Shown here: one piece after another, positions 22,786 through 42,968 of the stretch
How positions within the stretch are numbered: the first letter of the stretch is position 1
How the letters are laid out: every line of letters starts with the position of its first letter
DNA from: Planctomycetota bacterium
Lineage (GTDB): Bacteria; Planctomycetota; UBA11346
NCBI GenBank assembly: GCA_017302815.1
Contig: JAFLCQ010000003.1
Span: 2,042 to 66,041 of the forward strand
Direction: 5' to 3'
Length of the DNA: 64,000 nucleotides
Translations under genes and position numbers: made by a program
Notes under the pieces: model-generated
Database searches by the model: none
What the model was told of the DNA's origin: nothing
What the model saw: the letters and a program-made list of their open reading frames with translations, nothing else

Positions 22786-22788
22786 GGC

Positions 22789-23808
22789 TCAGCCCTCCAC
22801 CTTGGCATCGACGCTCGCTACGTCAGCTCCGGCCGGCGCGATCTCGTTGTCAGTTCCAACCTCAGTCACCCTCTCGGTTTCGATCTCAACCTCTGCCTCA
22901 GCTTCGGTCTCGACCGGCACTCTGTTGCGAAGCGAATCTTTCCCAGCGTGCGTCAGTTGGCGACCCTTCGGGGTGATCTTGACCCAGTCGAGCGTGTTCA
23001 GGTAGGGTTCGATGTGGCTCTGGATATACTCCCCAGGCTGGCGGATCTGCAGCGCAATGGTTTCCAGTGCGGCGACGCCACCCAAACGACTCAGGGCGGC
23101 GAGGTAGCTCTGCTGCAGCGAATCGCGATGGTACTGGTCGAATCCATGCGTCTCGAGGAAGCGCCGAACATCGCCCTCTTCGATCTGGATCTGTTCCTGC
23201 CCGCTGAGGCTACCTGCCAATGTCTGGATGCGCTGGCGGGCCAGCCGCGGGTTCCCCTGACTAGCGGCGGCGAGCAGCGTGATCGCCTGCGGCGTGAGCA
23301 GCAGTTCCTCACTAATCGTGATGCTCTTGATGATCAGGCGCATTTCGTCCGGCGTGTAGGGCGCCATCGGGATGACCAGCGTACAGCGCCCGTGTAGCGC
23401 CTTGGTCAGCAGATGCGGCTGGTCCGTGGCCAGGATGACGGTGCACACCGGACAGTCGCACTTGTGCAGGTTCTTCTTACTGGCCGCCTCCATGAAGCTG
23501 TACAAGCCTTCCTGGGAGCGGCGCGGCAGAGCGTGGGCTTCATCGATGAACAGGATGTCGTGGCTCTGGACTTCGGTCAGGGTCGTGGGGATGTTGAGAT
23601 CCCGGTCGGCAACGACCACACGGAACGTGGCATCCATCTCCATGGCGATGGCCTTGGCCAGTTCCGTTTTCCCGATGCCTGACGGCCCGATCAACAGCGT
23701 ATGGGGCATCAGGCGACCACGTTGCTTGGCGCCAGCCGCCTGGGTCCTGAGGATCTTCACTGCTTGGCGCTGACCGATGAATCCATGGAACGACTTCGGG
23801 GCGGTCAT
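22789..23808 (-). CDS. RuvB-like AAA+ ATPase paralogue
   Basis: Collinear with RuvB over its whole length: FIGQRQAV, LLIGPSGIGKTELA, ILFIDEAHAL, EGLYSFMEA, GNPRLARQRI (sensor 2) and a C-terminal winged helix EPYLNTLDWVKITPKGRQLT. It is atypical in having a Cys cluster HKCDCPVC and an acidic Glu/Thr/Val-rich tail. Confidence 0.7.
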   Translation of the reverse strand: MTAPKSFHGFIGQRQAVKILRTQAAGAKQRGRLMPHTLLIGPSGIGKTELAKAIAMEMDATFRVVVADRDLNIPTTLTEVQSHDILFIDEAHALPRRSQEGLYSFMEAASKKNLHKCDCPVCTVILATDQPHLLTKALHGRCTLVIPMAPYTPDEMRLIIKSITISEELLLTPQAITLLAAASQGNPRLARQRIQTLAGSLSGQEQIQIEEGDVRRFLETHGFDQYHRDSLQQSYLAALSRLGGVAALETIALQIRQPGEYIQSHIEPYLNTLDWVKITPKGRQLTHAGKDSLRNRVPVETEAEAEVEIETERVTEVGTDNEIAPAGADVASVDAKVEG

Positions 23809-24017: not shown

Positions 24018-24257
24018 TTCGGCGGCACCCGGATGATCCGAGTGCCGGCAAGAATACTTGTTACGCAAGGTAACCTCTGTGCGCCATAGGCGCAGATGTA
24101 GAACTAACCGAAGACGTCAGCGACGTCTCAAGCTCGTTGCGCAGTTACCTTGTAGGTGACCTGCGGTATCGTTCGACTTCGACGGCCTCATGGCCGCATC
24201 TTCTTCTTTGGCTGCTGAAACGGCAGCCACGCGCTGGCCCAAAAGGGTGTCTTTGGA

Positions 24258-24267
24258 CCCCCCCCCC
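24258..24267. repeat. C10/G10 homopolymer tract
   Basis: ggaCCCCCCCCCCgtg, ten consecutive C. It lies in a roughly 760-bp segment with no convincing gene. Confidence 0.9.
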
Positions 24268-24827
24268 GTGATGGGACAACTTCCACTGGTATGCAGACTT
24301 CAAGGAGCCGACCGTGATCACCGCGCTCCGACTCGGTTGGCACTCCCAGGTGAGGAGGGCGCCAGCCGGACGCAGCCGCTAAACCACCTCGGTGCCAAGC
24401 ACCAGGTAGCTGCAGGTGATGATCGTGATTGCCAGGGCCAGCGGCCCGGTGGACTTGGGTTTCTCGCACTACCTGCCCTTGGGGGCCGGTGCCGTTGGGG
24501 CTCGGAGTCGTCTCCGGCGATCTGGCGCTGCAGCCGTCTCGGCCATGTAGCGCGCTCAGTAGACCGGCTTCAGTAGCAATGTGGGTTCCCATTGCAAGCA
24601 ACTTCTTGCATCTTGAAGTGACAACGGTTTACGACGCAGCGATTGGTCAGCTCGCGAAAGATCCAACTGTCAATGGTGGCGGACCTAGTCGCCAGCGACT
24701 CCCCTGGGTTCGATCATGGAGCCCGACCCCGGAACACGGATAACTCGCAAACCATTGCTCGCGCTAACGTTGCAGGAATGATGCGGTTGAAGAGGCGAGG
24801 AACGGTCCGCAAGCGTCGCCGGCGACA

Positions 24828-25982
24828 TCACGTCCGCCGCGGTCGTGGCACCGGAGGTGGCAGCAACCGCACCTGCCAAGTGTGGCCGCCAGGTTGCTTA
24901 CGCAGGGGAATCCGCATGTGCAGCTTGATCCGCGACGACCTACCTTGGGCCTCAATGGCTAGGTCGTCGCGTTCAATCGCGTTGAGGATGCCCAGCACCA
25001 CATCCTCAGAGATCTCGTCACGATGCAGGACATGGCGTTGACGCCGGCGATCCGTTCCTGACCCGATCTTCCGGTTGATGAGGTCTACACCACGTCGCTT
25101 GTGCAGCAGGCGGCCAACGTCGCTGATGCCGAACGGCTTCCCTGCCAGATCCTCGCGGAGTATGATCTCCACGGCCGTTCGCAGATACCCCTGCATGCCA
25201 CCAAGGATCTCCGTTGCCCGTGCCGCACGCACACACGCCTGGAGGACAGGCACGATCGCCGTGCCCGTCACCAGGGGTTCATTGACCTGCGGTTCGGTCA
25301 GCAACTGATGGACCTTGGACTGGAGAAGTAGCCGCCGTTGCGGATCCCGACTGGCCTTGCGCCACCTAATCACGCCGTCCGCCAACTCATGCAGGAATGG
25401 CTGCCATACGGCCAAGTCCTCGGAAGCCGGTTGAACATCCCGTCGCCTATCCCTCGGCTTGGGTGTAGGTAGAGACGATCGCAGGACCTCGATCAGGCCA
25501 TGATCCGCAGGCCATATATTGAGGGCTCGCGCCAGGGCCTCGATCTGGTGCGGCTCGAACTGGTCCAGTAGGGCACCGCGACGATCACCGCAGAACCGCC
25601 ACCGCGCCACGCGCACGCCACGCGGTACGGGCAGTTGGCAGTCCGACTCGATCAACCGATCCAGCAGGGCACCCTCGAGTCGGTCCCACCAGGCGCCTGT
25701 GCACGCGGAAGCCGGAACCGACTTCCAATCGACGCCCGAGGACGCCGACAGCATGACGCTTTCCCAATACGCCTGGGGTGGGTCGATACCTTTCGCGATC
25801 CAGTCCGGGGACACCTGCAACACACCGGCAACGGTTGGTAGGCGAGCACTTGGAATCCCACCGGCGTCCCAATCGTACAAGGTGTTCGTCGAGACGCCCA
25901 GTGCCTTCGCCAGGTCGGCACGCGACCACCCCAAGTGGGTAAGCATGACCCCAATGCGTTCCATGTCCCTGACGACTGGCAT
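24828..25982 (-). CDS. XRE-family HTH regulator with large uncharacterised C-terminal domain
   Basis: N-terminal MLTHLGWSRADLAKALGVSTNTLYDWDAGG matches the Cro/C1-type HTH. About 300 further aa have no recognised motif. Divergent from the polymerase gene. Confidence 0.65.
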   Translation of the reverse strand: MPVVRDMERIGVMLTHLGWSRADLAKALGVSTNTLYDWDAGGIPSARLPTVAGVLQVSPDWIAKGIDPPQAYWESVMLSASSGVDWKSVPASACTGAWWDRLEGALLDRLIESDCQLPVPRGVRVARWRFCGDRRGALLDQFEPHQIEALARALNIWPADHGLIEVLRSSLPTPKPRDRRRDVQPASEDLAVWQPFLHELADGVIRWRKASRDPQRRLLLQSKVHQLLTEPQVNEPLVTGTAIVPVLQACVRAARATEILGGMQGYLRTAVEIILREDLAGKPFGISDVGRLLHKRRGVDLINRKIGSGTDRRRQRHVLHRDEISEDVVLGILNAIERDDLAIEAQGRSSRIKLHMRIPLRKQPGGHTWQVRLLPPPVPRPRRT

Positions 25983-26084
25983 GGCATCAGGCTGTCGCGT
26001 GCTCTAGGGGGATCAACTCAGGACGAGGCCGTGTTCCGTAAGTCTTTTATAGACAAATATATAAAATCTTGATCGGCGTAAACA

Positions 26085-26146
26085 CCAACCCAGGAGCGGC
26101 ATCTTCTCGAACCTCAGGGCGGCGCATAAGCCAACCCAGGAGCGGC
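26085..26146. promoter_or_regulatory. Two identical 16-bp direct repeats in the divergent XRE/polymerase control region
   Basis: ccaacccaggagcggc occurs at 26085-26100 and 26131-26146, 46 bp start to start. An AT-rich stretch ttttatagacaaatatataaaatcttgat lies at about 26045-26073, and tgatcggcgt also occurs twice (26070, 26162). Confidence 0.5.
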
Positions 26147-26260
26147 GTGATCGCGACGGCCTGATCGGCGTCGCGGTGATCCAAGCAGAACGCGCAAGCG
26201 GCGACGACCGGGGTCCCTGGCGCCGACATCCGTCGGCGTCGCTACCCAACGGGTGTCGCC

Positions 26261-29200
26261 ATGTCCGTCCCCTCCTCCATCCTCCCCTTCATCTCCCGTC
26301 CCGACGGACGCTGGAAGGTCGGCAGCCTCGATGGCTGGGTCTACGATATCGAGGTCTTCCCCAACTTCTTCTGCGTGCAGTTCTTCGACGGCGTCGACTC
26401 GAAAACCTTCGATCACACGCAGTTCCCTGACCTGGTGCGGTTCGTAACCGACACGGCGAAGGTCCTCATCGGCTTCAACAACTCCAGCTACGATGACGTG
26501 GTCCTGCGCGCGATCTGCCAGAATCCGACGCGCATCACTACGAACGAGATCTACGAACTGAGTGGTCTCCTCATCGCCAAGCGCGAAACGCTCGCGGAGC
26601 CGCAGATCAAGGAGCGCAATCTCCTGATCTATGCCTACGGGCGCAACCCGTGGGCCTTCTCGGTCGACCTCCACCAGGTCACCAATCGCAAGGCTGGCCT
26701 CAAGGAATATGAATGCCGCATGGGCCTGCCGACGGTGGCCGAGAGTCCGGCCGCCTTCGACCAGCCGGTGACCGAAGTGCAGATTCCCGAAATCCTGCGC
26801 TACAATCTCGTCGACGTCAACGCCACCTCGTACCTGCTGGAAAAGAACACCGAACTGGTCGAACTCCGCCATACCCTCTCCGAGCAGTACGCGCTCGGTA
26901 CTCGGATCTACAGCATGGGCGATGCGAAAATCGCCGAGCACTTCGTGCTGACAGCGCTGGAGCGCAAGACGGGTACCGAACCCAGGACGCTGCGGAACCT
27001 GGCCCAGAACTCGCCGAACAATAGGGCCAAGCAGTTCCCGGTCGCTGGACTGCTGCCGTACTCGGTGAACTTCACGACGCCGGTGTTCCAGCAGCTGTTC
27101 GAGACCCTGAAGGCCGGTAGCATCCAGCGCCAGTCCAACGGGGCTCTCGAACTGGACACGGAGCTGCCGGGCAACCAGGCGGTGGTGAACGGACTCACCC
27201 TGAACTTCGGTCGTGGTGGTCTGCATTCTGACGATGAGCCGGGCGTCTTCACCAGCGATGACATGGCGGAAATCTGGGACGTTGATGTGACGAGCTACTA
27301 CCCCGGCATGATGATCGCCTACGGCATCCGGCCGCATCATGTGCTGCCGGCGTTCACGGACGAACTGCGCAAGCTGCGCGACCAGCGGGTCGCCGCCAAG
27401 AAGGCGGGGGACAAGATCACCTCCGAAGCGCTGAAGATCGTCATCAACTCGGTTTTCGGCAAGCTCGGCGATCTTTACAGCCCGCTGCGGGATGACTACG
27501 CCTGTATGCAGGTTACCATCGGCGGTCAGATCCTGCTCCTGCTGCTGATCGAGGCGGTGCAGGTCGCTGGAGCGACGGTGCTGTCAGCGAACACTGACGG
27601 CCTGCTGCTCCGGGTGCCGGTGGACAAGGCGGCGGCCATCTACGCAGCGCTGCGCTCCTGGGAGACCACGACCTCGCTCGCGCTGGAGGAGAAGGCGTAC
27701 AAGACCGTCGCTCGCCGCGACGTGAACAACTACATCGCCATTGCGTCCGAGCCCGACAAGAAGGGCAACCTCGACATCAAGTCGAAGGGCTGCTTCAACG
27801 CCGATGCGACCAAGCTCTCGGGTCGCATCGTCCCGCTCGCAGTTCAGGAGCATCTGCGCACCAGCCTGCCGATTGAGACGATCATCGCGAACCATGGGAA
27901 CGCGGCTGACTTCCTCTACTACCAGCGTTCCCAGAGCGACGGCCATTTCGAGCGGGCTGGACAGCAGCTGCCGCGCACCGTGCGTTGGTACGCCTCCGCG
28001 GACGAGGCGGCGCCGATCGAGCGGGTGAGCCCCACGGGTGCGCGCGCCACGATCCCCAACGCACACCGGACCGCAATCGCCATCGAACTGCCGTCGGGTT
28101 TCACGCGCGCCGATCTCCCCGGCCTGGACGTCCAGCATTATGTCACCCAGAGCCAGAAACTGCTCAACGGCGCACTCGCCGGACCGCTGGTCGAGCGGGG
28201 TACCACCCAGGCCAGGCGGCTCCAGGAAATGGGTCTCATTCTCCTGCCGCAGCGCGGGGGTATGAATCCGAAGGGCATCACGCTGGATGATCTGGACACG
28301 ATCCGGTCGCTCGCGAACCGGCGCTGCGAGACCTGGGGCATCATCACCGGCCCCAACACCCAGACGCTGGTGCTCGACCTCGATAAGATCGAGGTTCTCA
28401 ACCCCACGCTCATCGAGATCCTGTCCGCTCATCCGACGCTCACGACCTGGCATGGCGAGGGCAGCGCGGACGCGGTGCGTGCCGGTCGGAAGCGCGGCGC
28501 GGTATGCTTCCACTATGCCGGTCAGGACGCTCGGATCTATACCCGGCGGACCAAGCCCTGGCTCAACAAGCATGGCTTCGAGGTCGCCTTCGGCGCCAAG
28601 ATCCAGACCGTCATCGGCCAGCATCGCGACGTGGGCGACAACTACGTCCAGGACGGCGAGGTCGCCGATGCTCCCGAGGCGCTGATCGAGTTCATCGGGC
28701 TGCGCAGCGGCCTGCCCAAGAAGCGGCGGCAGGATGAGGCCCATACCGACGCAGGCGATCTCGATCGCCTGCGCCTGGCGGCCGATGCGGTCTTCGGCAA
28801 CGGATGGGCTCGGCCGTTCAACGCCCGTGACGGTCTGAGTGGCGTCGAGGGGACGGTGCCTGGGTACGAGCGGCGTTCAACGCTGCGGCTCTGGGTCAGC
28901 GCGGGGCGGGTCAGCGGCTTCACCTTCCACGCCAACTTCGATACGCGCAGCCGGGTGCAGATGATCCAGGAAGCATATGATCGGCTGCTGCCGCCTGGTG
29001 GAGGTCCTGGCGGTGGCGGCACCTCCACTGCCGGAGACGAACATCATGGTCCGGCCGCTGGCGACGATCCGGCCCATCTCGACGCTTCCGATGCGCCGGC
29101 GATGCCGAGCGAGGAGGATCGGCGCGAGGCCACGAACTGCGCCGACGCCTTCGGCCAGATCACCAGCGTGGGAGTGGTCATCGGCGCCACGGGAACGGGC

Positions 29201-31357
29201 AAGTCCTGGCAGGCCGTCACCCGCGCCATCGAACGGCACGAGCAGGACCTGTTCACCCTCCTGGTGGCGCCGGACAAGGAGGGCATCGAGCAGATGCGGA
29301 AATACCTCCTCAAACAGTGGATCGACGCCGGACGCGTACCGGCGGAACTGTGCATGGAGATCCTGGTCAGCGCGCGCCTGCCGTCCGACACTGAGGATGA
29401 TGGAAGCGATGCGACCGGAGCCTCGGGCGGTGAGATCAAGACGAGCACGCGGATCGTGATCACCCATCACCACTTCGCGTCGCGGAAGCCTCTGACCAGG
29501 TTCCTCTACTCTGCGCTGACCTGGGTGCGGGAGCACCTCGCCGAGGTCATCCTCGATGAGGCCGACCTCTATATCGAACGGCAGAACCATCATCTCCAAC
29601 TCGACAACCGCTACATGTTGATCGGCGGTGCCAAGGGTCAGTGGACGCGCGTCAATCACTGTCCCAGCGCCAAGGGCCAGTTCCGCTGCAAAACCTGCCA
29701 TTTGCGTTCCGGCGGTCGGGTCACGAACCTCGGAACCCACATGGCCTACCGCGCGGCTGCCACTATCGTACCCAGCCAGTTCTCACAGCCGCTGGACGAG
29801 GAGTTCACCATCACGTCAGAGAACCTGTCAATCGAGCAGACCATCAACCTGCCGACCCTCAACCTGCGCCTTTCAAGTCTGGCGCAGACGCCGAAATACC
29901 TCACCCAGCGTGACTTCAGCCAGCAGCGCAAGCCGCCCAAGCCTGGTGAGGAGCAGCCGACGCCGCAGCAGGAGATGCTTGGGTACCTCCGGGATCTGAT
30001 CGATTGCTCGTACCAGCCGACGCTGGCGGAGCCCAAGCTGGTCGATGCGGACATGCAGATTGTCGAGGCTGACCCGCACGTCACGGCCAGCGCCGACGCT
30101 GCTGATGCCGATGCCGCTGCGACGCCGGTCTTCGACAGCGCCCATTCGGCGTCCTACCATTTCCCGTGGTTCGTCTGCAATGCCCGCTTCCTGCTGCTCT
30201 ATGACCGCGCGGCCGTCTTCTTCCTGATGAGGCACGCGAGTCGGCTGATCCTGATGTCGGCGACGATCGACGAGCAGCACATGGCCTTCCTGCGCAGCTG
30301 CGCCAACGGCCGGTCGGTCACCGAAGTGCGGATCGCCACCACCACCTACCAGCCGCTTGACCAGGTCGTCCTCATCGGCCATCAGGGACGCATCGCCTGG
30401 ATGGACCCGCTGGGCGAACGGGCGGCCGCGGCCATCGGCTGCAACTACAGCGATGTCGGGGTGAGCAACCGCACGACGATCGAACGGCTCGGCAACGCGC
30501 TGGCCGCAGCCGGCAGGCCGCCGCTCATGTTCATGCCGACGAAGGAGGATGCCCTAGCGGTGTTCGCGCGGATGAAGGAGAAGGGTTGGACCTTCTACAT
30601 CGAGGGTGAGTACCGCATGCATATCGGACAGGCAGTGGCTGAGTCCCAGACCACCGACGGTTCCCTGGGCCTGCTCAGCTACAGCCGGAGCGCCCTGGGA
30701 ACGGGCATGAACCTGCCGCAGTACATGGTCGCCGTGGTCGACGGCACCGTCCGGCGCCCCCATTATGTGTTCAACCCGGCCCTGAAGACCGAGGATGCCT
30801 ACCTCGAAGCCCAGGAGATGGATCGGGTGCACATCATGGTCCAGAATGTCGGGCGGATTCTGCGGGGGACCGGGGTGAAGTTCGTATTCGTGGTCGGGAT
30901 CTCCCCGGGACAGCTGGCGAAGCTGGCCAAGGAGGTCGAACGCCTGGCGCAGGCGCCAACCGCATCGTGGTTCACGCCTGATGATACGGTCACCGCCATG
31001 GCGACGCTGGTGGCCAGCGTGAAGGCCGGTCAGCTCGTGGTCCCGGACGTACCGAAGCCGGAACCCAAGACCCGTAACCGGCAGAGCAGGAAGCAGCGGG
31101 CGGCGGCGGACGCAACGTCAGATCCGGTTGAGCGCCTACAGGCGGCGATAGCCAAGGTCCAGGAGCGAGCCAAGGACGGTGCAACGTGGCGTGGGGCCGC
31201 TAGGGCCGCGAATGTCGCACGCTTGCCCAAGGCGGAACAGGATCAGGTCAGGGCCGCCTTCGAGGCTGCAATCACTACTGGCGGAGTTACGAACACCGAA
31301 GGACCGCAGGCCGCTGAGGACGACGTTCGGGACGATGCCGACTCCGTGTGGACCTGA
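26261..31357 (+). CDS. Giant replication protein: family-B DNA polymerase + AEP primase-polymerase + SF2 (DEAD/H-type) helicase fusion
   Basis: PolB 3'-5' exonuclease motifs are YDIEVF (ExoI), NSSYDD (ExoII) and YNLVD (ExoIII). Polymerase motifs are A DVDVTSYYPGMM, B KIVINSVFGKLG and C SANTDGLLL (aa about 1-640). The PrimPol-like part is WGIITGPNTQTLVLDLDK ... GAVCFHYAG (aa about 655-815). The helicase has Walker A GATGTGKS (975-982), ILDEADL (1097-1103), MSAT (1332-1335) and QNVGRILRG (motif VI), with an inserted CPSAKGQFRCKTCH zinc-ribbon-like element. Confidence 0.75.
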   Translation: MSVPSSILPFISRPDGRWKVGSLDGWVYDIEVFPNFFCVQFFDGVDSKTFDHTQFPDLVRFVTDTAKVLIGFNNSSYDDVVLRAICQNPTRITTNEIYELSGLLIAKRETLAEPQIKERNLLIYAYGRNPWAFSVDLHQVTNRKAGLKEYECRMGLPTVAESPAAFDQPVTEVQIPEILRYNLVDVNATSYLLEKNTELVELRHTLSEQYALGTRIYSMGDAKIAEHFVLTALERKTGTEPRTLRNLAQNSPNNRAKQFPVAGLLPYSVNFTTPVFQQLFETLKAGSIQRQSNGALELDTELPGNQAVVNGLTLNFGRGGLHSDDEPGVFTSDDMAEIWDVDVTSYYPGMMIAYGIRPHHVLPAFTDELRKLRDQRVAAKKAGDKITSEALKIVINSVFGKLGDLYSPLRDDYACMQVTIGGQILLLLLIEAVQVAGATVLSANTDGLLLRVPVDKAAAIYAALRSWETTTSLALEEKAYKTVARRDVNNYIAIASEPDKKGNLDIKSKGCFNADATKLSGRIVPLAVQEHLRTSLPIETIIANHGNAADFLYYQRSQSDGHFERAGQQLPRTVRWYASADEAAPIERVSPTGARATIPNAHRTAIAIELPSGFTRADLPGLDVQHYVTQSQKLLNGALAGPLVERGTTQARRLQEMGLILLPQRGGMNPKGITLDDLDTIRSLANRRCETWGIITGPNTQTLVLDLDKIEVLNPTLIEILSAHPTLTTWHGEGSADAVRAGRKRGAVCFHYAGQDARIYTRRTKPWLNKHGFEVAFGAKIQTVIGQHRDVGDNYVQDGEVADAPEALIEFIGLRSGLPKKRRQDEAHTDAGDLDRLRLAADAVFGNGWARPFNARDGLSGVEGTVPGYERRSTLRLWVSAGRVSGFTFHANFDTRSRVQMIQEAYDRLLPPGGGPGGGGTSTAGDEHHGPAAGDDPAHLDASDAPAMPSEEDRREATNCADAFGQITSVGVVIGATGTGKSWQAVTRAIERHEQDLFTLLVAPDKEGIEQMRKYLLKQWIDAGRVPAELCMEILVSARLPSDTEDDGSDATGASGGEIKTSTRIVITHHHFASRKPLTRFLYSALTWVREHLAEVILDEADLYIERQNHHLQLDNRYMLIGGAKGQWTRVNHCPSAKGQFRCKTCHLRSGGRVTNLGTHMAYRAAATIVPSQFSQPLDEEFTITSENLSIEQTINLPTLNLRLSSLAQTPKYLTQRDFSQQRKPPKPGEEQPTPQQEMLGYLRDLIDCSYQPTLAEPKLVDADMQIVEADPHVTASADAADADAAATPVFDSAHSASYHFPWFVCNARFLLLYDRAAVFFLMRHASRLILMSATIDEQHMAFLRSCANGRSVTEVRIATTTYQPLDQVVLIGHQGRIAWMDPLGERAAAAIGCNYSDVGVSNRTTIERLGNALAAAGRPPLMFMPTKEDALAVFARMKEKGWTFYIEGEYRMHIGQAVAESQTTDGSLGLLSYSRSALGTGMNLPQYMVAVVDGTVRRPHYVFNPALKTEDAYLEAQEMDRVHIMVQNVGRILRGTGVKFVFVVGISPGQLAKLAKEVERLAQAPTASWFTPDDTVTAMATLVASVKAGQLVVPDVPKPEPKTRNRQSRKQRAAADATSDPVERLQAAIAKVQERAKDGATWRGAARAANVARLPKAEQDQVRAAFEAAITTGGVTNTEGPQAAEDDVRDDADSVWT

Positions 31358-31381
31358 AAAGATCCTGGGATTATCGGTACT

Positions 31382-31434
31382 TGTCATCAAAAGTGGCTAC
31401 GTCCTATATATAGACGTAGCCACTTTTGATGACA
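31382..31434. repeat. Near-perfect 53-bp palindrome (22-bp arms) directly after the polymerase gene
   Basis: tgtcatcaaaagtggctacgtc (31382-31403) and gacgtagccacttttgatgaca (31413-31434) flank ctatatata. The arm core caaaagtggct recurs at 31449-31459. Confidence 0.9.
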
Positions 31435-32311
31435 GTAACCGAATAATACAAAAGTGGCTGTACTTGCCTGCTTGTCTATTTCAGAGGTTGTTTTCAAGCG
31501 AATCATGTCGATGCGACAATCGTCCATAGTATAAAACCACCATCGTTTTTGTAATCATGCATAGACCTTAGGCCGCATGCAATCGAGCAGCGTGAAGTTG
31601 AATGCGCAAATAGTCGTTCGAACCACAGTTCGACATGAAGCGTCGCGAACGGCGAACGTCCAAAAGATCAATACACACCAGCGTCATGCAGCGTGTTACG
31701 GTTCGACTCCATGTGCTGATTAGTTCGTTGGTATCAGCTAAATCGCCGAGTCGCTGGCATCAAGTAAATCCATTCAATGCGAGACCGTTCATTGGGTAAA
31801 TCGACCAAATAATATGCGATAAGAATCATAGTGGCCACATAGCCACAACTATGTCGCAGCCATCGGCGATTCATCCCGCCGTTGGCGGGATCGTCGTAGC
31901 TCGGCTCCACCACATCCTTGGAGAACTAACTATGTCCCATCTCTTCGCGTTTTCGCACCCGCGTGAACACCAGTTAAGCGGCCTTGACCTGTCTCCGTCA
32001 GAGTCGTCAGGGGCCATCGAGGCCTCCTTCTGGGAACGCCGCCGCCACCGCCTGCCCCAGGACTGGCCATCGGTAGTCTCCCGCTTTCTCGATCGGCCGT
32101 CCTCGCCCCAGCACACCCCTCGTCCATCGCCATCTGCTAGTCGGCCAGCGCCGCGTGGTCCGAGCGCCGCCAGCGCGGGCTGAAATCCGGTCACATGCGT
32201 ACCGCAAAATATCGTCGTTTGCGGACATCCCAGTTGGCCGCTGCCAACTCAGATGGCAGCAGCCATCATCTGGCACAACCGCATACCGATCCGCATATTG
32301 GTCAGGTAACC

Positions 32312-32602
32312 ATGCCAGGTCCCAAGAAGCGAGACGAACCGCCGCGCCGCACGCTGACCGTGCGGCTGCCTGTCCCCGTGATTGAGCGTCTTCGCAAGGT
32401 CGCTCGGGACGCTGCCGGCATGCCGGTATTCGCCAGCATGGCTGGCATCGTCGAGGCTGGCGTTACCTCGGAATGCGACCGGATCGAGAAGGTTCTGCGA
32501 GCCGCGTATTCCGGCGGAACAGAGCCGCCAGCCACTCGGAGAACGCTCGCAGGCAGCCGACGCCTCGGCCCCATCAACAACCGCTGTGTCGATATTCCCT
32601 AA
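32312..32602 (+). CDS. Small possible ribbon-helix-helix DNA-binding protein
   Basis: From ATG 32312: MPGPKKRDEPPRRTLTVRLPVPVIERLRKVARD, a beta-strand-then-helix pattern like CopG/Arc. The track ORF starts at 32195. Confidence 0.4.
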   Translation: MPGPKKRDEPPRRTLTVRLPVPVIERLRKVARDAAGMPVFASMAGIVEAGVTSECDRIEKVLRAAYSGGTEPPATRRTLAGSRRLGPINNRCVDIP

Positions 32603-32653
32603 CGTCGGCCTATCCCTCCATCCTATCTTCCACCTCCACCACCGGAGTTCCTT

Positions 32654-34135: not shown

Positions 34136-34594
34136 ATGGCCATCACCATCCAGGCCCAACTCGCGAAGAAGGTGCCGATTCCCGGCGCCGACTACTCGTC
34201 CCAGCAGGCCTCCATTACCATCTCGGCCGAGGTAACCGACCTCACCCAGGTCGTCACCGAGGCCCAACGCATCTACGCCATCGCTGAGCAGGCGGTCGAT
34301 GCACAACTGAACCGGCAAACCGCCGCTGTCCCCCAGTCTGCTCGATCGGTCGCCGCACCACCCCAGGCACAACCGCGACAGGGCATTTCCCAGCCCCATC
34401 GGCCCAATAGTCAGCGCCGCCAGCCGGCCGCCGTGACCGATTCCCAACTCCGGTTCCTCAAGCGTCTGATCGACCAGACCAAAGTGGCAGTGCCGGCGAT
34501 CCTCGATCAGTACCAGGTCGGCAGTCTCGACCAGCTTTCATGCCGGGATGCGGCCGGGCTGATTGACGAACTGAAGGGCCAGGTGGCGGCGTGA
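34136..34594 (+). CDS. Hypothetical protein (Gln/Pro-rich linker, helical C-terminal module)
   Basis: GGAG lies 8 nt upstream of ATG 34136. 152 aa. C-terminal SQLRFLKRLIDQ...SLDQLSCRDAAGLIDELK. 4-nt overlap with the next gene. Confidence 0.5.
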   Translation: MAITIQAQLAKKVPIPGADYSSQQASITISAEVTDLTQVVTEAQRIYAIAEQAVDAQLNRQTAAVPQSARSVAAPPQAQPRQGISQPHRPNSQRRQPAAVTDSQLRFLKRLIDQTKVAVPAILDQYQVGSLDQLSCRDAAGLIDELKGQVAA

Positions 34595-35361
34595 TTGCAG
34601 CCACCGTTGTGACCCCATCTACTCCTCCTTCAGCGGCACAGCGATCACCTGATCACCTCAGCCACAGCCAGGTCCAGGAGTTCACCCTGTGTCCTCGGCG
34701 ATGGCGATTCAACAAGATCGAAAACGCGCCGCGGGAGCAGGTCGGCTCAGCCCTGGTCTTCGGAGCGGCGGTACACGACACCATCGCCGCCGTGAACGAG
34801 GCTGCGCTGCATGGAGAGCGCATCGACGCGCCAGCGCATTTCCTCACCGCCTGGAAGCGGGCGGTGGCTGACGCCAATGCACCGATCCACTTCGGCAAGG
34901 ACGATGGTGACGACCTCATCGCCAAGGGCCGGAGTCTCGTCGGCATCTACACGCCACCGCCAGGGATCATTGGCGTCGAGCAACCGTTCGAGGTCGAGTT
35001 GGCGCCGGATCTTCCAATCGTCCAAGGCCGCATCGACCTGGTGCGTGCCGAGGGCGAAACCCTAATCCTGGCTGACATCAAGACTGCCGCTGCCCGCACG
35101 CTGACCGACACCCATGCGGTCGAGGCACAGTTGGCACTTTACGATCTCGCGTATCCCGCCTCCCGGCACGAGGTCATCGTCGCTGCCAAACTCAAAAACC
35201 CCGTGATCACGGTCCAGCCGATCACGCCCTGGCCGATCGCGACGCTCGTGCGCCATTACCGGGAAGTCCATCACGGGATGGCCAGCGGTGTCCGCTACGG
35301 GGTGCGGGGTTGGCAGTGCGAGGGTTGTTCGTTCGCAAGCCGTTGCAGAAAGGAAGGATAG
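34591..35361 (+). CDS. Cas4/RecB-like PD-(D/E)xK exonuclease with 4-Cys cluster
   Basis: N-terminal Cys (EFTLCPRRW), nuclease motifs GRIDLV ... LILADIKT ... EAQLALYDLA (QxxxY), and C-terminal CEGCSFASRC (C-x2-C-x5-C). Confidence 0.7.
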   Translation: MIAATVVTPSTPPSAAQRSPDHLSHSQVQEFTLCPRRWRFNKIENAPREQVGSALVFGAAVHDTIAAVNEAALHGERIDAPAHFLTAWKRAVADANAPIHFGKDDGDDLIAKGRSLVGIYTPPPGIIGVEQPFEVELAPDLPIVQGRIDLVRAEGETLILADIKTAAARTLTDTHAVEAQLALYDLAYPASRHEVIVAAKLKNPVITVQPITPWPIATLVRHYREVHHGMASGVRYGVRGWQCEGCSFASRCRKEG

Positions 35362-35364
35362 GCC

Positions 35365-36048: not shown

Positions 36049-36057
36049 CCGACATCC

Positions 36058-36090: not shown

Positions 36091-36966
36091 TCACCTGTCG
36101 TCCAAGCCCGCTACGGCCGCTCTCGGTTGGTGGGTCATCCGGCGCACATCGAAGACCAGACGTGAGCCGTCAATACGCCCGTCCGCCGATCGGAGGAGAA
36201 ACAGGTCGACGTTGCGTTGGTCGTCACTAGCATCGTCCTCATCCAACCCAAGACCGAGGACGGCGTCAGCCCCGTCGAGGTCTTCATCCTCGGCGTACCC
36301 GGCGGTGGCGACGATGGGGATGCCAAGCTCCCGGGCGATGCTCGCCAGGGATCGCACCATCGTCTGCACGGAACTCGTCGTGACTCCAAGGGTTTCCGCC
36401 CCGAGATAGTCGACGATCACCACCGTCGATCGGACCGATGCATGCTGGTGAATCAGCGTTGTCAGCTGGTCGGCGGTTGCATCCGTAGGTGCCATCAGGA
36501 CGAGCGGCCAGGACGCGATGGCTGCCTGGGCTTGATCCACGGCGGCCAGCTGCGCCGGACTGCAGGTGCCTGATTCCAAGAAGTCGTAGGGCACGCCGGT
36601 CATCGCCGTGATCAGCTTCCACGTCAGCATCGGCACCGACAGGTCCGTGCTGATGTAGAGAACCTGGACAGGGTCGGCTGGCCGGGCGACGAGATCGCGA
36701 GCCAAACCCAGCGCGAGCGAGGACTTCCCCGATCCAGGCTGGCATACGCAGACGTGCATCTGTCCGGGCTGCAGCAGCGGCACCACGTCACGCCAGCCGA
36801 TCGCCTGCACCGGGATGGGACGGTTGTGATCTGCCACGCCGCCACCGTAGCACGCCATCCCCATGCACCAGTCCCATGGCAGCAGCGCCGTTCGACGTCG
36901 CCTGCCATGGATTTCCATCACCAAACCCCGGCCATCCGGCCACTGAAAGGAGCCCCATATGTCCAA
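36091..36966 (-). CDS. DnaB C-terminal-domain-like / RecA-fold ATPase
   Basis: Walker A QPGSGKSSLALGLA, Walker B VVIVDYLGAE, and LASIARELGIPIVATAGY as in the DnaB_C LK.LAKEL.VPV.ALSQL pattern. There is no DnaB N-terminal domain. The true start may be an internal Met (36918 or 36864). It is the only minus-strand gene in this module. Confidence 0.6.
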   Translation of the reverse strand: MDIWGSFQWPDGRGLVMEIHGRRRRTALLPWDWCMGMACYGGGVADHNRPIPVQAIGWRDVVPLLQPGQMHVCVCQPGSGKSSLALGLARDLVARPADPVQVLYISTDLSVPMLTWKLITAMTGVPYDFLESGTCSPAQLAAVDQAQAAIASWPLVLMAPTDATADQLTTLIHQHASVRSTVVIVDYLGAETLGVTTSSVQTMVRSLASIARELGIPIVATAGYAEDEDLDGADAVLGLGLDEDDASDDQRNVDLFLLRSADGRIDGSRLVFDVRRMTHQPRAAVAGLDDR

Positions 36967-37165
36967 GACCCGGCGTTATCCGTGGCCCGCATCCGCTCTG
37001 TCGGACCGCGAACTGATGAACCAACTGCACCAGGCCAGCGTCGCGACGAAGACCCCGATCACTCGCCTGCTACGCATAGCGGCCGATCGCCTTGTCGCCG
37101 ACATCCGTGACCGCATGGACGATCCGGCCTCGCTGCGCGGGGTCGAACCGCGGCCGGCGGCCTGA
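36959..37165 (+). CDS. Small putative DNA-binding protein (paralogue of 38784-38972)
   Basis: 68 aa. YPWPASALSDRELMNQLHQASVATKTPITRLLRIAADRL aligns with WPWARALPASLTHEQVRDLHALSKISGRTIRRIVTTAV of the other copy. Confidence 0.45.
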   Translation: MSKTRRYPWPASALSDRELMNQLHQASVATKTPITRLLRIAADRLVADIRDRMDDPASLRGVEPRPAA

Positions 37166-37167
37166 AC

Positions 37168-37386
37168 GTGGGCCTCGCCACCACGCCGGCGATGCTGACC
37201 CAGATCGAGGAGCAGTGGAAGTCCCGCGCCCGGACGCAGGGCTACAAGCCCGGAAGCAACCGATACCGGCAGGCCGAACTCGAGTTCTTCGTCGGCGCTA
37301 TGGCCGCCATCGAAGCCGTCACCGGCAATCCCAGTCCGCCCAGATGGGTCATCGCCGGCATGCGCGGCGACCCCATCGCCGTCTGA
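37168..37386 (+). CDS. Hypothetical small protein
   Basis: 72-aa ORF with a GTG start 3 nt after the previous stop. No recognised motif. Confidence 0.35.
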   Translation: MGLATTPAMLTQIEEQWKSRARTQGYKPGSNRYRQAELEFFVGAMAAIEAVTGNPSPPRWVIAGMRGDPIAV

Positions 37387-37484
37387 TTCCATCAACCAGC
37401 AGGACATCGAGCACCGCCGTCCGGGCTCCTGCCAGGCCAGATCGCTGGCCGGCAACGTCCTGCTCCTTCTCTCTGAGCAACGAC

Positions 37485-38777
37485 ATGAACCTCACTGATT
37501 ACATCGCCAAACACCGTTCAACCGCGAGGAAGCCCACCGCTGACATCCGTTCGCGCTGGGCCTCCCGCATCGTCGCCCGCAACCTTCATCAGCAGGCTGC
37601 AGCCGGCGCGCAGGCCTACCTGCGCGACTACGGCAAGGGCATCTCCACCGCCAAGGTCATCGCCCTCGCCATCCAGGCCGAGGTCGAGGGCTGTGACGAC
37701 ATGGCCCGTGGTTTCTGGGCCAAGGCGTTCGAGTTGGAGACGGGCATCTCGGCTCCAGCCACGGCGAGCAGTGATGTCACCTCCAGGTCCAACAAGGAGG
37801 CAGCGTCAGCGCCCCTGGCTGTGGCGTTTCCGGGCCTACCCGCCCATCTCCAGCCCGGCCGCATCATCACCATGCAACCAGTCGACGCTGCCGGTACCCA
37901 CGACGACTACATCCACAACCCGATCTACTGCGGCCAACCCAAACGAGATGGCAGCCGGATCGTGGTGATCGCCTCATCCCAGCCCGTCGTCTACCAGAGC
38001 CGCTCGACCAGCATCCTGGCTTCACCGAGCATGTCCTTCGACGGTGCCTTCCGTCGCGCCGCCGAGGCCAAGGGGCCGTTCGTCCTCGACGGTGAACTGG
38101 TCTACCTCGACGCCAGCGGCGGCGAGCACCGTACCGGCAGCCAGGCGGCCCAGGCCAACGCAACCAACGATCACCCCGATGCCCGGGTGCGCTGCCGGAT
38201 CTGCGTCTTCAGGGCGCTGTTCGCCAACGGCCGCGACCTGACGAGCGCCGATGAGGAGGCCCGCATCCGCGGCGCCGAGATCATCGTCGGCATCGCCCAA
38301 GGCATCCTGATCAAGGCCGGCGTCGAGGACTACGACATCGAGCAGGTGCCCACGGCCTGGACGAAGGCCCAGAAGCACGCCCTGGTTTGCCGCCAGCAGG
38401 ATGAGGGCCGCGAAGGCGAGGTGTGGATTCAGCGGCAGACCCGCTACCTCGGCGGTAAGCATGGCGAGATCATGGTACGGACGAAGTACCTCGCCGAGAC
38501 CGAGGTCGTCATCACGGCCCTGACCCCGACCACGGTCGCTGGCCGTCCCTTCGGTGCCATGGAGGTCGCCGAGGCGAAGCCCGATGGGGCTGGTCGGCCG
38601 CTGGGCCGCGTCGGCACCGGCTTCAGCGCGGAGGACGCCTCCGAGATCGCCATGCTCGTCGCCCGGCATCCCGAAGGCCTCCGCATCCTGGTCCGTCACC
38701 AGGGCCGCACCGAGACCGGTATGCTGTGGCATGCCCGGTTCCTCCGCATCATCGGGCCGGTCGGCATGGTCGCGTAG
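37485..38777 (+). CDS. ATP-dependent DNA ligase
   Basis: Adenylation motif I KRDGSR (K codon at 37941), motif III FVLDGELVYLD, motif V region EGEVWIQR / MVRTKY, and an OB-like C-terminal part with GRVGTGFS. Start placed at MNLTDY (37485); the track ORF begins at 37092. Confidence 0.7.
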   Translation: MNLTDYIAKHRSTARKPTADIRSRWASRIVARNLHQQAAAGAQAYLRDYGKGISTAKVIALAIQAEVEGCDDMARGFWAKAFELETGISAPATASSDVTSRSNKEAASAPLAVAFPGLPAHLQPGRIITMQPVDAAGTHDDYIHNPIYCGQPKRDGSRIVVIASSQPVVYQSRSTSILASPSMSFDGAFRRAAEAKGPFVLDGELVYLDASGGEHRTGSQAAQANATNDHPDARVRCRICVFRALFANGRDLTSADEEARIRGAEIIVGIAQGILIKAGVEDYDIEQVPTAWTKAQKHALVCRQQDEGREGEVWIQRQTRYLGGKHGEIMVRTKYLAETEVVITALTPTTVAGRPFGAMEVAEAKPDGAGRPLGRVGTGFSAEDASEIAMLVARHPEGLRILVRHQGRTETGMLWHARFLRIIGPVGMVA

Positions 38778-38989: not shown

Positions 38990-39703
38990 ATGAACACCGT
39001 CTTCCATATTCCCCGCATCACAGCCGATCGCCTCGCACGCCTGCCCTTGGCCTGTGCCGACGAATCCGGTCCTCTCGGCCACATCGGCGTCCGCGTCACG
39101 CCGACCGCCGTGCGCTTCGCTGCCACCAACGGCCGCATCCTCGCCAGCCTCGTCGTGCCCATCGACGTCCTCACCGGCGATGCCGGCGACGTCATTTTCG
39201 ACGCGGCTCAGTTCGCCACCGCCCTCAAGGCTGCGGCAAAGGCGACTGGCGGGCGCATCCAGATCGAGATCGGGCCGAAGGAGGCCCGGCTGACCAACGG
39301 CACGGCATCGGCCATCGTCCGCCGCGTCGACGGCACCTTCCCGCGCGTCGAGCACGTCTGGTCGCGCACCGCCGGGCGCCAGTGGGTGCCGACGATCAGC
39401 AGTCTCGATCCCGTGCTGTTAGCCACCGCCCAGAAGATCAGCGGGCACAAGAATCCGCTGCTGTTCTCATCCCCCGTCGATCCCGCCGCCCGGCTGGATC
39501 GCCTCTGGGCCGTGCCGGGCGCCACCGCCGGCGAGAGCCTCGACCTCGCCCAGGCCCGGCAGGCCGTGATCGCCCCGGCGTACTGGGCCGACCACGAACT
39601 CGCCATCCTGGTCATGCCCGTCACCAGGACCGCTGAGCAGCGCCAACTCGATCTCCAGGTCCACGCCGTGAGCCTGCCAGAGTCGGCCGCCGTCGCGGCC
39701 TGA
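38990..39703 (+). CDS. Shortened DNA polymerase III beta-clamp (DnaN)-like protein
   Basis: VRFAATNGRILA resembles DnaN LRTVATDGHRLA. VDGTFPRVEHVW resembles VDGRFPDYRRVLP. C-terminal AILVMPVTR resembles YVVMPMRL. It is 237 aa versus about 366 for canonical beta, so roughly one domain is missing. Confidence 0.55.
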   Translation: MNTVFHIPRITADRLARLPLACADESGPLGHIGVRVTPTAVRFAATNGRILASLVVPIDVLTGDAGDVIFDAAQFATALKAAAKATGGRIQIEIGPKEARLTNGTASAIVRRVDGTFPRVEHVWSRTAGRQWVPTISSLDPVLLATAQKISGHKNPLLFSSPVDPAARLDRLWAVPGATAGESLDLAQARQAVIAPAYWADHELAILVMPVTRTAEQRQLDLQVHAVSLPESAAVAA

Positions 39704-41355: not shown

Positions 41356-41622
41356 ATGCCCCACTCCACGACCATGGTCGCGGGGCTGCGCCGTCTTCTC
41401 AGCACCGAGGAGGCGAGCATCTACCTCGACTGTCATGTGCGGACCATTCCCCGCCTCATGGAAAGGGAGGTGAATCCGCTCAAGGCATACCGTATTGGCC
41501 GCATCCTGAAGTTCCGCCAGGAAGATCTCGATGCCATACTTGAGCCGGTGAACACCGACTCGGCCGCGTCGACCTCCCTGGAGGACTTCGTCGACCAGCA
41601 GTTCCAGACGGGGGCGCCGTGA
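41356..41622 (+). CDS. Excisionase-family HTH DNA-binding protein
   Basis: LLSTEEASIYLDCHVRTIPRLMEREVNPLKAYRIGRILKFRQEDLDAIL fits the excisionase/HTH_17 pattern. 4-nt overlap with the integrase gene. An alternative start lies at 41374. Confidence 0.65.
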   Translation: MPHSTTMVAGLRRLLSTEEASIYLDCHVRTIPRLMEREVNPLKAYRIGRILKFRQEDLDAILEPVNTDSAASTSLEDFVDQQFQTGAP

Positions 41623-42968
41623 ACGTCGCCCTCGCGCTGAACCCCCCGGCGGCGTCCGCCGCCGGGGCCAATCCCATCATCATCTTCGAGAGGAAGCCTA
41701 TGGCGGGGCACACCACGATGCCGCCTCGCAAACAGACCACGCCCTACGGCGACGTCACCCTGACCTCGCGCTGGATGCGTGATCGCTATCACCTCGTCGC
41801 CACCGGGCCGATCTCAGCCCTGCGGTGGATGTTCCCGAAGCACGATGGCTCCATGGAGGCCGTGTCGCCGCATGCGTGTCGCCACGTCTTCAGCCCGGCG
41901 CCCGCACCCATCACGGTCGAGCGCGAACTGAGAAGGGTCTGCGCGGTCTGGCAGGCCAGGTGGGATGAGCGCGGCCAGGACACCCAGGACGGCCTTGCCG
42001 CAAGTTCGCCTTCGCAGTCGTCCTCCATCCAGAACCTCGGCCAACTATTCGACCACCTGTACGCCGACCGCATGACCAAGGTCGCCAAGTCGACGACCGA
42101 CCGGGACCGCTATCGGCTGCTTCTGTGGCGCACCGAACTCGGCAACGACCGCCTGCTCGCGAACCTGCGGCCGGATGACATTGCCGATGCCCTGGCCCGG
42201 ATCGGCAAGCGCACCAGCCCGTCCACTGCCAACACCAGCCTGGGCGTCCTGAAGACCTACCTGACCTGGGCGGCGAACATGGGGCTACTGCGTGACCTGA
42301 GTCACAAGACGGTCCGTCGGCTCAAGGAGCCGGCCTCGTTACGCCACCGCCGCGAATGGTGGACAACCGCCCAGTTCGAGCAGGCGCTCGCCATCGCTCA
42401 ACAGGACCCGCACCAGCCGACGGCTACGCTGCTGGTGGCATGCGGCTGTCTGCTCGGGCTGCGACCCGAGGAAATCATCATGCAGCGCTGGGAGGACCTG
42501 GATCTCGATGCCAAGGACCCCCAGACGGGCGAACCGCGGCCGGTCTGCCATGTCGTTCCGCACTCCGGCTGGACGCCGAAGGATGGCGAGGCGCGGGACA
42601 TCCCTATCTCGGCCAGGCTCCTGGCCATTCTGACGCCGCTTCGGCGGAAGGCTGGCTTCCTGCTGATGAATGAGCCGCACCGGAAAGGACGGCCTCGTGG
42701 TGGGACGGGCTGGAAGTACCGCTACAACCCGACCAAGGTCTGGCGGCGGATGATGGAGGCGTTCACGAAGGCCGGCGGGAAGGTCATTACCATGTACGGC
42801 ATGCGGCACACCTTCGCCTCGAACCTGCTCATCAACAACGTCTCGGACGTGAAGGTCGCTCGCTGGTTGGGGCATGGTGACACCCGCATGCTGCACCGTC
42901 ACTACGGCCACCTGCTGAGCTATGACGATGACATCAACGCCACAGCGAACCCCAAGGAGCAGGGGTGA
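41619..42968 (+). CDS. Tyrosine recombinase / phage-type integrase
   Basis: C-terminal catalytic region: GLRPEEI (Arg I), YGMRHTFASNLL (box II) and LGHGDTRMLHRHYGHL (nucleophile Tyr). Plus an N-terminal SAM-like core-binding region. The start codon is uncertain (GTG 41619 or Met near 41701). Confidence 0.85.
   Translation: MNVALALNPPAASAAGANPIIIFERKPMAGHTTMPPRKQTTPYGDVTLTSRWMRDRYHLVATGPISALRWMFPKHDGSMEAVSPHACRHVFSPAPAPITVERELRRVCAVWQARWDERGQDTQDGLAASSPSQSSSIQNLGQLFDHLYADRMTKVAKSTTDRDRYRLLLWRTELGNDRLLANLRPDDIADALARIGKRTSPSTANTSLGVLKTYLTWAANMGLLRDLSHKTVRRLKEPASLRHRREWWTTAQFEQALAIAQQDPHQPTATLLVACGCLLGLRPEEIIMQRWEDLDLDAKDPQTGEPRPVCHVVPHSGWTPKDGEARDIPISARLLAILTPLRRKAGFLLMNEPHRKGRPRGGTGWKYRYNPTKVWRRMMEAFTKAGGKVITMYGMRHTFASNLLINNVSDVKVARWLGHGDTRMLHRHYGHLLSYDDDINATANPKEQG

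Follow-up and report, generated by a model that had tools for sequence, protein, structure and literature searches.

A predicted single-chain polymerase, primase-polymerase and superfamily 2 helicase encoded on an integrase-bearing island of a planctomycetal bacterium

To our knowledge, a polymerase, a primase and a helicase joined in one chain make up the most compact replisome known, and GP55 of Lactococcus phage 1706 is the only protein of this kind that has been studied biochemically. Gp55 was described as a fusion of a superfamily 3 (SF3) helicase, an archaeo-eukaryotic primase (AEP) and a DNA polymerase of family B (PolB), and Pas55 of phage phiAsp2 as an SF3-DnaG-PolA fusion (Kazlauskas et al. 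2016, PMC4889955); a PolB group was subsequently named 'HelPrimPolB' (Kazlauskas et al. 2020, PMC7544198). In vitro, GP55 was reported to be active as a helicase, primase, polymerase and exonuclease, and the protein, called a 'four-in-one replicase', synthesises DNA de novo and forms a dimer (Zhang et al. 2025, PMC12205980). Primase-helicase fusions with a superfamily 2 (SF2) helicase are represented by phage PAU gp68 (AEP and SF2) and N15/PY54 RepA (DnaG and SF2) (PMC4889955). Here, a gene for a protein with a PolB, an AEP primase-polymerase (Prim-Pol) and an SF2 helicase module was analysed in a 64,000-nt stretch of a Planctomycetota bacterium, referred to as the window (assembly GCA_017302815.1, contig JAFLCQ010000003.1, positions 2,042 to 66,041, forward strand). 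A first-pass annotation of the window had not recognised such a triple fusion as a known architecture; as a general statement, that it is undescribed is wrong, phage fusions having been published in 2016, 2020 and 2025. The general idea of a one-chain polymerase-primase-helicase is known already; the arrangement with PolB first and SF2 last is a differently assembled second form, and no description of the order PolB, Prim-Pol, SF2 helicase was found in a literature search of incomplete coverage.

The gene and its modules were delimited as follows, with the supporting evidence in brackets.
26261..31357, + strand: PolB / Prim-Pol / SF2-helicase fusion gene, 1698 aa, ATG start (open reading frame (ORF) and translation, full-length orthologues).
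26318..28180, + strand: family-B DNA polymerase module, aa ~20-640, with ExoI-III and motifs A, B and C, the last as NTD (PHROG_1252).
28223..28705, + strand: AEP Prim-Pol domain, aa ~655-815, with D706xD708, candidate H731 and candidate E774 (AlphaFold2, Foldseek against BFVD, weak PF09250).
28706..29041, + strand: conserved alpha/beta domain after the Prim-Pol core, aa ~816-927 (model and invariant residues).
28991..29134, + strand: low-complexity linker rich in Gly, Pro and acidic residues, aa 911-958, PPGGGPGGGGTSTAGDEHHGPAAGDDPAHLDASDAPAMPSEEDRRE (sequence).
29138..29605, + strand: predicted first RecA-like lobe of the SF2 helicase, aa ~960-1115, with GATGTGKS and DEAD (Pfam DEAD, E 8.5e-5).
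29606..30190, + strand: insertion of ~195 aa that separates motifs II and III and holds a Cys3-His cluster, invariant in the family (alignment columns).
30191..31030, + strand: predicted second lobe of the SF2 helicase, aa ~1311-1590, with SAT and QNVGRILR (motif conservation).
31031..31354, + strand: C-terminal basic/helical tail, aa 1591-1698 (conserved block G-x-T-W-R...A-x-R-x-V-N).

The single uninterrupted frame of 1698 aa, which the first-pass annotation had reported, was confirmed at 26261-31357 on the + strand; every motif it had quoted was found in its place, and its three domain calls and their order agreed with profile, model and motif evidence. The G+C content is 62-66% in the gene region and 62-70% in the window, and overlapping antisense ORFs of 300-400 aa accompany the gene, so that the length of the frame alone proves nothing. 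Window positions 21644-41357 recur, at 99.9% identity along 19.7 kb, in a Logan assembly made from another run (SRR10663363), and the 1698-aa protein encoded there is identical. Five orthologues of 48-60% identity covered 96-98% of its length, and P0016 (1662 aa, 25% identity) was colinear with it from end to end. With a HMMER profile of residues 640-1698, searched exhaustively against 1.84 billion cluster representatives, 335 proteins were matched; the retrieved sequences were re-scanned with separate module profiles, and 35 proteins of 1536-1761 aa carried all three modules in the same order. As the identical protein occurs in an independent assembly, the orthologues are colinear and 35 proteins share the order, the gene is real and contiguous and not an assembly artefact. 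Ten clusters of the family were looked up and held 1-2 sequences each, nine of the ten from metagenome sources only, and the name was 'hypothetical protein' in every named case. Conservation is given below as counts among the 35 full-length members of the retrieved sequences, smaller denominators being the members aligned at that position; the pattern points to purifying selection on the active sites of all three modules across these divergent proteins.

For the N-terminal module, PHROG_1252 ('DNA polymerase') matched aa 25-636 at E 3.8e-124. The PDB matches of the family profile were PolBs only (Pol alpha, E. coli Pol II, RB69; E 1.8e-5 to 4e-3, spanning motifs B to C), and PF00136 is precomputed for the relatives P0019 and P0021. 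Exonuclease motifs ExoI with its DxE, ExoII and ExoIII were located at aa 28-35 (YDIEVFPN), 71-79 (GFNNSSYDD) and 181-185 (YNLVD), with D29/E31, N74/D78 and Y181/D185 present; these residues are kept in 31-34 of the 35 members, except N74 (21 N, 8 S), and the ExoI D/E in 31 of 32 aligned. The polymerase motifs followed at aa 342-349 (A, DVTSYYPG), 392-400 (B, KIVINSVFG) and 443-447 (C, ANTDG). Motifs A and B are complete, D342, Y347, K392 and G400 being invariant (35/35), and the motif A Asp, the motif B Lys, Asn and Gly and the second Asp of motif C were counted in 34-35 of 35. The Asp residues of motifs A and C are metal ligands in RB69-type PolBs. Judged by profiles and motifs, the N-terminal module is a family-B DNA polymerase with its proofreading exonuclease motifs intact. 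In tblastn searches the module matched 982 phage records, the top matches with 28-36% identity over 88-99% of aa 1-640 and with similarity limited to the polymerase module; the nearest relatives found are phage PolBs.

The middle module was modelled with AlphaFold2 (aa 640-912, 7-sequence alignment) at a mean predicted local distance difference test (pLDDT) score of 83.5. Foldseek against viral predicted structures (BFVD) placed the top 20 matches at E <=0.001 (4.8e-7 to 8.4e-4); 13 of these were named, and all 13 are primases or Prim-Pols, the best compact match being an Orpheovirus Prim-Pol (TM 0.63, root-mean-square deviation 4.4). PF09250 matched weakly in five of seven members (best E 7.9e-4), and the PolB and Prim-Pol relative P0015 scored 20.6 bits. 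Sequence motifs lie at aa 692-708 (WGIITGPNTQTLVLDLD) and 748-754 (VCFHYAG). Motif I is present as LDLD, with D706 and D708 conserved in 34 of 34 aligned; motifs II and III were assigned by pattern and position, with H731 (24/35) as candidate for motif II and, for motif III, E774 in GFEV (34/35) and D756 (17/35), of which E774, not D756, is likely the motif III residue. The module is, as modelled, an AEP Prim-Pol fold. It is followed by the alpha/beta domain of aa ~816-927, modelled as a helix, four strands and a helix, with invariant G848, G864, R876, F889 and H890; Pfam had no match for this domain even at E 10. Linkers rich in Gly, Pro and acidic residues had been claimed between the modules. 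Such a linker does separate the primase region from the helicase (aa 911-958) and differs in length among orthologues; the junction of PolB and Prim-Pol is a short ordinary connector.

In the C-terminal module, SF2 motifs I, II, III and VI are all present in order: GATGTGKS at aa 975-982, DEAD at 1099-1102, SAT at 1333-1335 and QNVGRILR at 1528-1535. GxGK[ST], Q1528, R1532 and R1535 are conserved in all 35 members and G1531 in 34, the DE of motif II in 29 of 29 aligned and SAT in 20-21 of 23 aligned. For the relatives P0043, P0044 and P0057, the matches to DEAD, ResIII and Helicase_C have E values from 1.8e-5 to 3e-4; Helicase_C was detected in the stand-alone relative P0044, which also carries PriCT_2. 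Foldseek matches of the helicase model in the PDB were mostly SF2 proteins at the top (DEAD-box, Hel308, RecQ, PriA, DinG, NS3; E 2.2e-3 or worse), a result which is only supportive because the underlying AlphaFold model is poor. Motif conservation and these relatives support a very divergent SF2 helicase. The insertion between motifs II and III holds HCPSAKGQFRCKTCH at aa 1133-1147 plus H1160, with invariant C1134, C1143, C1146 and H1160; it was modelled at low confidence and found no Pfam match even at E 10, and from its Cys3-His pattern it is presumably metal-binding. The tail of aa 1591-1698, for which Pfam likewise had no match even at E 10, keeps its G-x-T-W-R...A-x-R-x-V-N block in orthologues including the 25%-identical P0016 and is a possible DNA-binding region.

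As in GP55, helicase and AEP-type primase are combined with a proofreading PolB in a single polypeptide, and both proteins come from mobile genetic elements. The PolB parts are distant homologues; each has the exonuclease motifs YDIEVFPN and GFNNxxYD, and in neither is motif C a DTD. BLASTP aligned the PolB parts only (22% identity, E 2e-8), and phrog_4210 matched the polymerase module at E 1.3e-14, versus E 3.8e-124 for phrog_1252. The order in GP55 is helicase-primase-alphaHD-PolB, whereas it is PolB-primase-helicase here; the helicase of GP55 is of SF3 type (DUF5906, aa 181-292; Walker A/B, sensor 1, arginine finger), in contrast to the SF2 type with motifs I, II, III and VI; the primase of the fusion protein is of the Prim-Pol (PF09250-like) type; and GP55 belongs to a virulent-type siphophage of a low-GC host, unlike the integrase-bearing island of a high-GC uncultured bacterium. 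The HelPrimPolB arrangement, SF3 and PrimPol fused N-terminal to PolB, was not found in the fusion protein.

Closest to the polymerase module among characterised genomes are the stand-alone phage PolBs of PHROG_1252, such as those of Xanthomonas phage Langgrundblatt1, Rhizobium phage RHEph04 and Rhodobacter phage RcTitan; they differ from the fusion protein in that similarity is limited to the polymerase module in the top matches. In PAU gp68 and N15/PY54 RepA, as in the fusion protein, the primase precedes an SF2 helicase regarded as replicative; they differ in having no polymerase module. In the phage collection, tblastn with the Prim-Pol and SF2 part matched nothing, which leaves homology to PAU gp68 unsupported. 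Staphylococcus aureus pathogenicity islands (SaPIs) and phage-inducible chromosomal islands (PICIs), with a pri-rep-ori organisation, are similar in a replicase gene followed by a candidate origin with repeats and an AT-rich core on an integrase-bearing island. SaPI Rep proteins consist of primase and helicase only and rely on the host polymerase. Pipolins are self-replicating integrative elements with their own PolB and a tyrosine recombinase (PMC5695915); piPolB is self-priming and has no fused primase or helicase, whereas the fusion protein has a separate Prim-Pol active site.

Non-coding DNA on either side of the gene was searched for repeats, and the following features were recorded, none with a strand.
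31360..31900: non-coding stretch of ~540 bp with low G+C (40-51% vs 62-70% around).
31374..31459: palindrome at 31374-31442 with 30-nt arms and a central TATATA, plus a third CAAAAGTGGCT half-site at 31449-31459 (inverted-repeat search).
26074-26110 and 26120-26156: pair of direct repeats, 37 nt each and 78% identical, located in the promoter region of the divergent genes (repeat search).

The palindrome starts 17 nt past the stop codon of the fusion gene, in a stretch (31360-31900) where no supported ORF of at least 100 aa was found. Its half-site motif occurs three times, against 0.31 expected, and as single-stranded DNA it is predicted to form a hairpin of -32.6 kcal/mol (z -11.2). The pattern GTCAyCAA...TGGCT...TATATA...AGCCA...TTGrTGAC with an extra half-site also lies downstream of the orthologues at loci L001 (13201-13333) and L004 (~7385-7500), whose proteins are 48% and 56% identical to the fusion protein, and at L091 a different 23-nt inverted repeat takes the same position 3' of the homologue gene. 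Conservation of a non-coding sequence between loci whose proteins are 48-56% identical speaks for a recognised site, whether origin or operator; lying 3' of the gene, the palindrome is a candidate replication origin. In SaPI and PICI elements, ori adjoins rep. On the other side of the gene, the 37-nt direct repeats are possibly operators; an AT-rich patch (26040-26070) adjoins them, between the gene of a helix-turn-helix (HTH) regulator and the replicase gene.

Around the gene lies an island that carries an integrase and is rich in genes for replication; G+C drops from ~69% to 59-66% between ~18 and ~37 kb. The following features define the island or concern replication and regulation in it.
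19062-19076 and 43034-43048, no strand: 15-bp exact direct repeat ACATGGAGCGTGGCC (k-mer search, alignment).
22789..23808, - strand: RuvB_N / clamp-loader-like AAA+ ATPase (Pfam RuvB_N, E 1.6e-23; PHROG 'clamp loader of DNA polymerase', E 4e-19).
24828..25982, - strand: divergently transcribed 384-aa protein with an N-terminal HTH (Pfam HTH_23/HTH_3, PHROG transcriptional regulators).
34591..35361, + strand: PD-(D/E)XK (Cas4-like) nuclease (Pfam PDDEXK_1, E 1e-20).
36091..36966, - strand: DnaB_C-like RecA-family ATPase (Pfam DnaB_C, E 3.6e-16; PHROG_19).
37092..38777, + strand: ATP-dependent DNA ligase (Pfam DNA_ligase_A_M, E 5e-9).
38990..39703, + strand: sliding-clamp-like protein, with no more than weak matches (PHROG_947 'DNA polymerase processivity factor', E 3e-6; Pfam DNA_pol3_beta_2, E 4.5e-3).
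41035-41622: HTH_17 excisionase-like ORF just upstream of the integrase (Pfam HTH_17, E 1.8e-5).
41619..42968, + strand: tyrosine integrase (Pfam Phage_integrase, E 1.5e-12).
43157-43233, - strand: tRNA-Gly(GCC) (tRNA scan).

The 15-bp pair, whose right copy lies between the integrase gene and the tRNA-Gly gene, brackets the island of lower G+C and is a candidate for att sites bounding an element of ~24 kb. Pipolins usually adjoin tRNA genes; integration into the tRNA-Gly gene was considered here and rejected, the sole repeat found (15 bp) lying 109 bp before the tRNA and outside it. A divergent gene of 339-450 aa stands upstream of the replicase gene at every locus inspected (L001, L002, L003, L004, L091) and carries an HTH where Pfam detects one, and an integrase also adjoins the 25%-identical homologue at L091. 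The ligase is called as a 430-aa gene at L005, and its true start in the window is probably internal to the ORF 37092..38777. With clamp-loader/RuvB-like, DnaB_C-like, ligase and clamp-like genes besides the replicase gene, the replication set is unusually full for a 24 kb element in whose larger scanned ORFs neither virion genes nor type IV secretion or other conjugation genes were recognised.

Further features of the island and its flank were as follows.
18509-18886: three tandem 126-nt units, 74-84% identical, in the ORF 18455-18886, near the left edge of the island.
20637-22785, - strand: overlapping gene pair of a MoxR-like AAA_5 ATPase and a DUF2201 protein (PHROG_1297, PHROG_1314).
32654-33943: NHL/beta-propeller repeat protein with a signal-peptide-like N-terminus, cargo without obvious replication link.
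43283-44311, - strand: HemB gene in the island flank.

The ORF 18455-18886 encodes a thrice-repeated PKPWYIGPKGGDxRKG...ELWVAxHG peptide for which Pfam had no match. The DUF2201 protein consists of a putative metallopeptidase plus a VWA-like domain, and a DUF932 protein was also recognised in the island. For HemB, the best match in 185,579 species-representative genomes reached 74% identity, to metagenome-assembled genomes whose labels conflict, so that the window stems from a high-GC lineage with poor sampling.

Taken together, the fusion protein probably replicates an integrative mobile element of ~24 kb and would unite four replication activities in a single chain. The enzymatic activities, the part played in replication of the element and the identity of the origin are what we infer from sequence, and the course of events would be the following. 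The tyrosine integrase and the excisionase-like protein would excise the element, and the SF2 helicase module would unwind its DNA, probably from the AT-rich stretch with the palindrome that adjoins the 3' end of the gene. Primers would be made by the Prim-Pol module and extended by the N-terminal PolB with its 3'-5' proofreading exonuclease, and the clamp-like protein, the clamp-loader-like ATPase, the ligase and the nuclease of the element may aid processivity and lagging-strand maturation.

Several results weigh against this reading. In Foldseek against the PDB the Prim-Pol model gave E 0.33 or worse, with RRM-like noise only, and nothing significant was returned when a family profile of the Prim-Pol region was searched against PDB sequences; the window protein scored 14.1 bits with PF09250, below the gathering cut-off of 22.8. 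For the helicase, Pfam DEAD reached 19.3-22.8 bits versus a gathering score of 26, the family profile of the region again gave nothing significant against PDB sequences, and the AlphaFold model (7-sequence alignment) had a pLDDT of 50.7, with the first lobe alone confident. The SF2 module is perhaps not the replicative helicase, since the element encodes a separate DnaB_C-like ATPase. One 15-bp repeat is the sole basis for the limits of the ~24 kb element. Downstream of the L002 orthologue the palindrome is missing, at L006 and L007 only a remnant of it is left, and it could be a simple terminator, although its conservation in sequence across loci with 48-56%-identical proteins argues for a recognised site. 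Finally, the canonical DTD of polymerase motif C is missing in every member, as discussed below.

Among the alternatives, a degraded prophage or a phage satellite, in which a phage-type replicase would be used only after helper induction, is an unlikely but serious one. The PolB is nearest to siphophage polymerases (the 982 phage records, identity up to 36%), and hits to PHROG families 1297 and 1314 were obtained for the MoxR-like ATPase and the DUF2201 protein. The layout of integrase, regulator, replicase and adjacent ori resembles that of PICIs and SaPIs. Against it, the larger ORFs of the ~24 kb scanned included nothing recognisable as a gene for capsid, terminase, portal or tail, and the Prim-Pol/SF2 part had no match in 50,697 phage records or IMG/VR. 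This alternative differs from the replicase reading only in the kind of element and not in the job of the protein.

The main rival for that job is repair, damage tolerance or the handling of foreign DNA, for host or element, which we hold to be improbable. It is modelled on ICETh2 of Thermus thermophilus, whose Prim-Pol, encoded beside a helicase, is dispensable for replication of the element and affects environmental DNA uptake and repair, as reported (PMC7693054, PMC9751324); the island here also has a Cas4-like nuclease, a ligase and the MoxR/VWA pair. Such a role is less likely given a proofreading PolB fused in cis, catalytically intact by its motifs in 35 of 35 members, given the clamp-like, clamp-loader-like and ligase genes of the same island, and given that the fusion protein had no match among the PADLOC anti-phage defence models. 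In addition, the closest characterised analogue, GP55, is a replicase, and the gene keeps a conserved partnership with the HTH regulator and the 3' palindrome.

It is a little harder still to believe that at least one module is a catalytically dead scaffold, for example that the PolB serves as exonuclease or DNA-binding part only and the Prim-Pol synthesises, as in pRN1 or NrS-1. Small elements can make do with a Prim-Pol alone for replication (PMC12205980), the KxY motif of the PolB is divergent (KSKGCF), and the first Asp of DTD is replaced by Asn in all 35 members, the second Asp being retained. The first-pass annotation had drawn attention to this Asn; the substitution is present, and it fails as a sign of inactivity, since NTD is invariant (35/35) and GP55, with KTD at the aligned position, is an active polymerase (PMC12205980), which argues for a clade trait and not for decay. 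Divergent MotifC and KxY were also noted in related PolB groups (Kazlauskas et al. 2020, PMC7544198), and the remaining residues of motifs A, B and C are conserved as given above. That the long ORF is an assembly chimera, a gene-joining sequencing frameshift or a spurious GC-rich frame, of which long ones are common at 62-70% G+C, is effectively refuted by the identical protein of the independent assembly, by orthologues of 25-60% identity colinear over the full length, by the same module order in the 35 retrieved proteins and by the conserved catalytic motifs.

The distribution of the Prim-Pol and SF2 part was examined by tblastn against 50,697 phage and 72,556 plasmid records, without a match, and by Prim-Pol and helicase profile scans of genomes, IMG/VR and metagenome contigs seeded on two short peptide patterns, by which divergent members could be missed. 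These scans found no relative in 185,579 GTDB species-representative genomes or in IMG/VR and only four loci in metagenome contigs. Stand-alone Prim-Pol and SF2 relatives of ~1000 aa exist, e.g. P0043, P0044 and P0069. Within this PolB lineage, at least six further sets of partners occur as fusions, placed before or after the polymerase (relatives P0007-P0014, P0013, P0017-P0020, P0023, P0024 and P0136), namely:
PriCT-1 and VapE/DUF5906, N-terminal;
DnaG zinc ribbon, Toprim and VapE;
Toprim, D5_N and DUF5906;
RepB primase and AAA_25;
5'-3' exonuclease;
Prim-Pol and DUF3987.

In a rough neighbour-joining tree of PolB modules, star-like and calculated from a biased sample without support values, the other architectures fall among the PolB-PrimPol-SF2 proteins, with GP55 as a long-branch outgroup; as such, the tree is only a hint of repeated module swapping. 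We give about even weight to the wider proposal that the PolB-PrimPol-SF2 proteins are ancient and diverse, undescribed single-chain replisomes, independent of the GP55 type, which would mark new self-replicating integrative elements without virion or conjugation genes and with a cognate palindromic origin 3' of the gene, and whose helicase and primase modules would have been swapped repeatedly (SF2, DUF3987, VapE/D5 SF3, RecA-like AAA_25, DnaG-Toprim).

The PolB-PrimPol-SF2 family would be a second, differently built solution to the one-chain replisome, in which the polymerase leads and the motor is of SF2 and not of SF3 type, and a second build suggests repeated selection of mobile elements toward self-contained replicases. 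It offers a test of the constraints that domain order and helicase polarity place on how unwinding, priming and synthesis are coupled, and its proteins could serve primer-free isothermal amplification. The gene plus ~100 bp with the conserved palindrome is a candidate minimal replicon. The lack of tblastn matches in the phage and plasmid records and of relatives in the pattern-seeded scans of genomes and IMG/VR points to a reservoir of integrative elements missed by current catalogues, and the fusion protein is apparently tied to an uncatalogued type of such element. For biochemistry and for evolutionary comparison it would make a useful companion to GP55, but it is no new principle.

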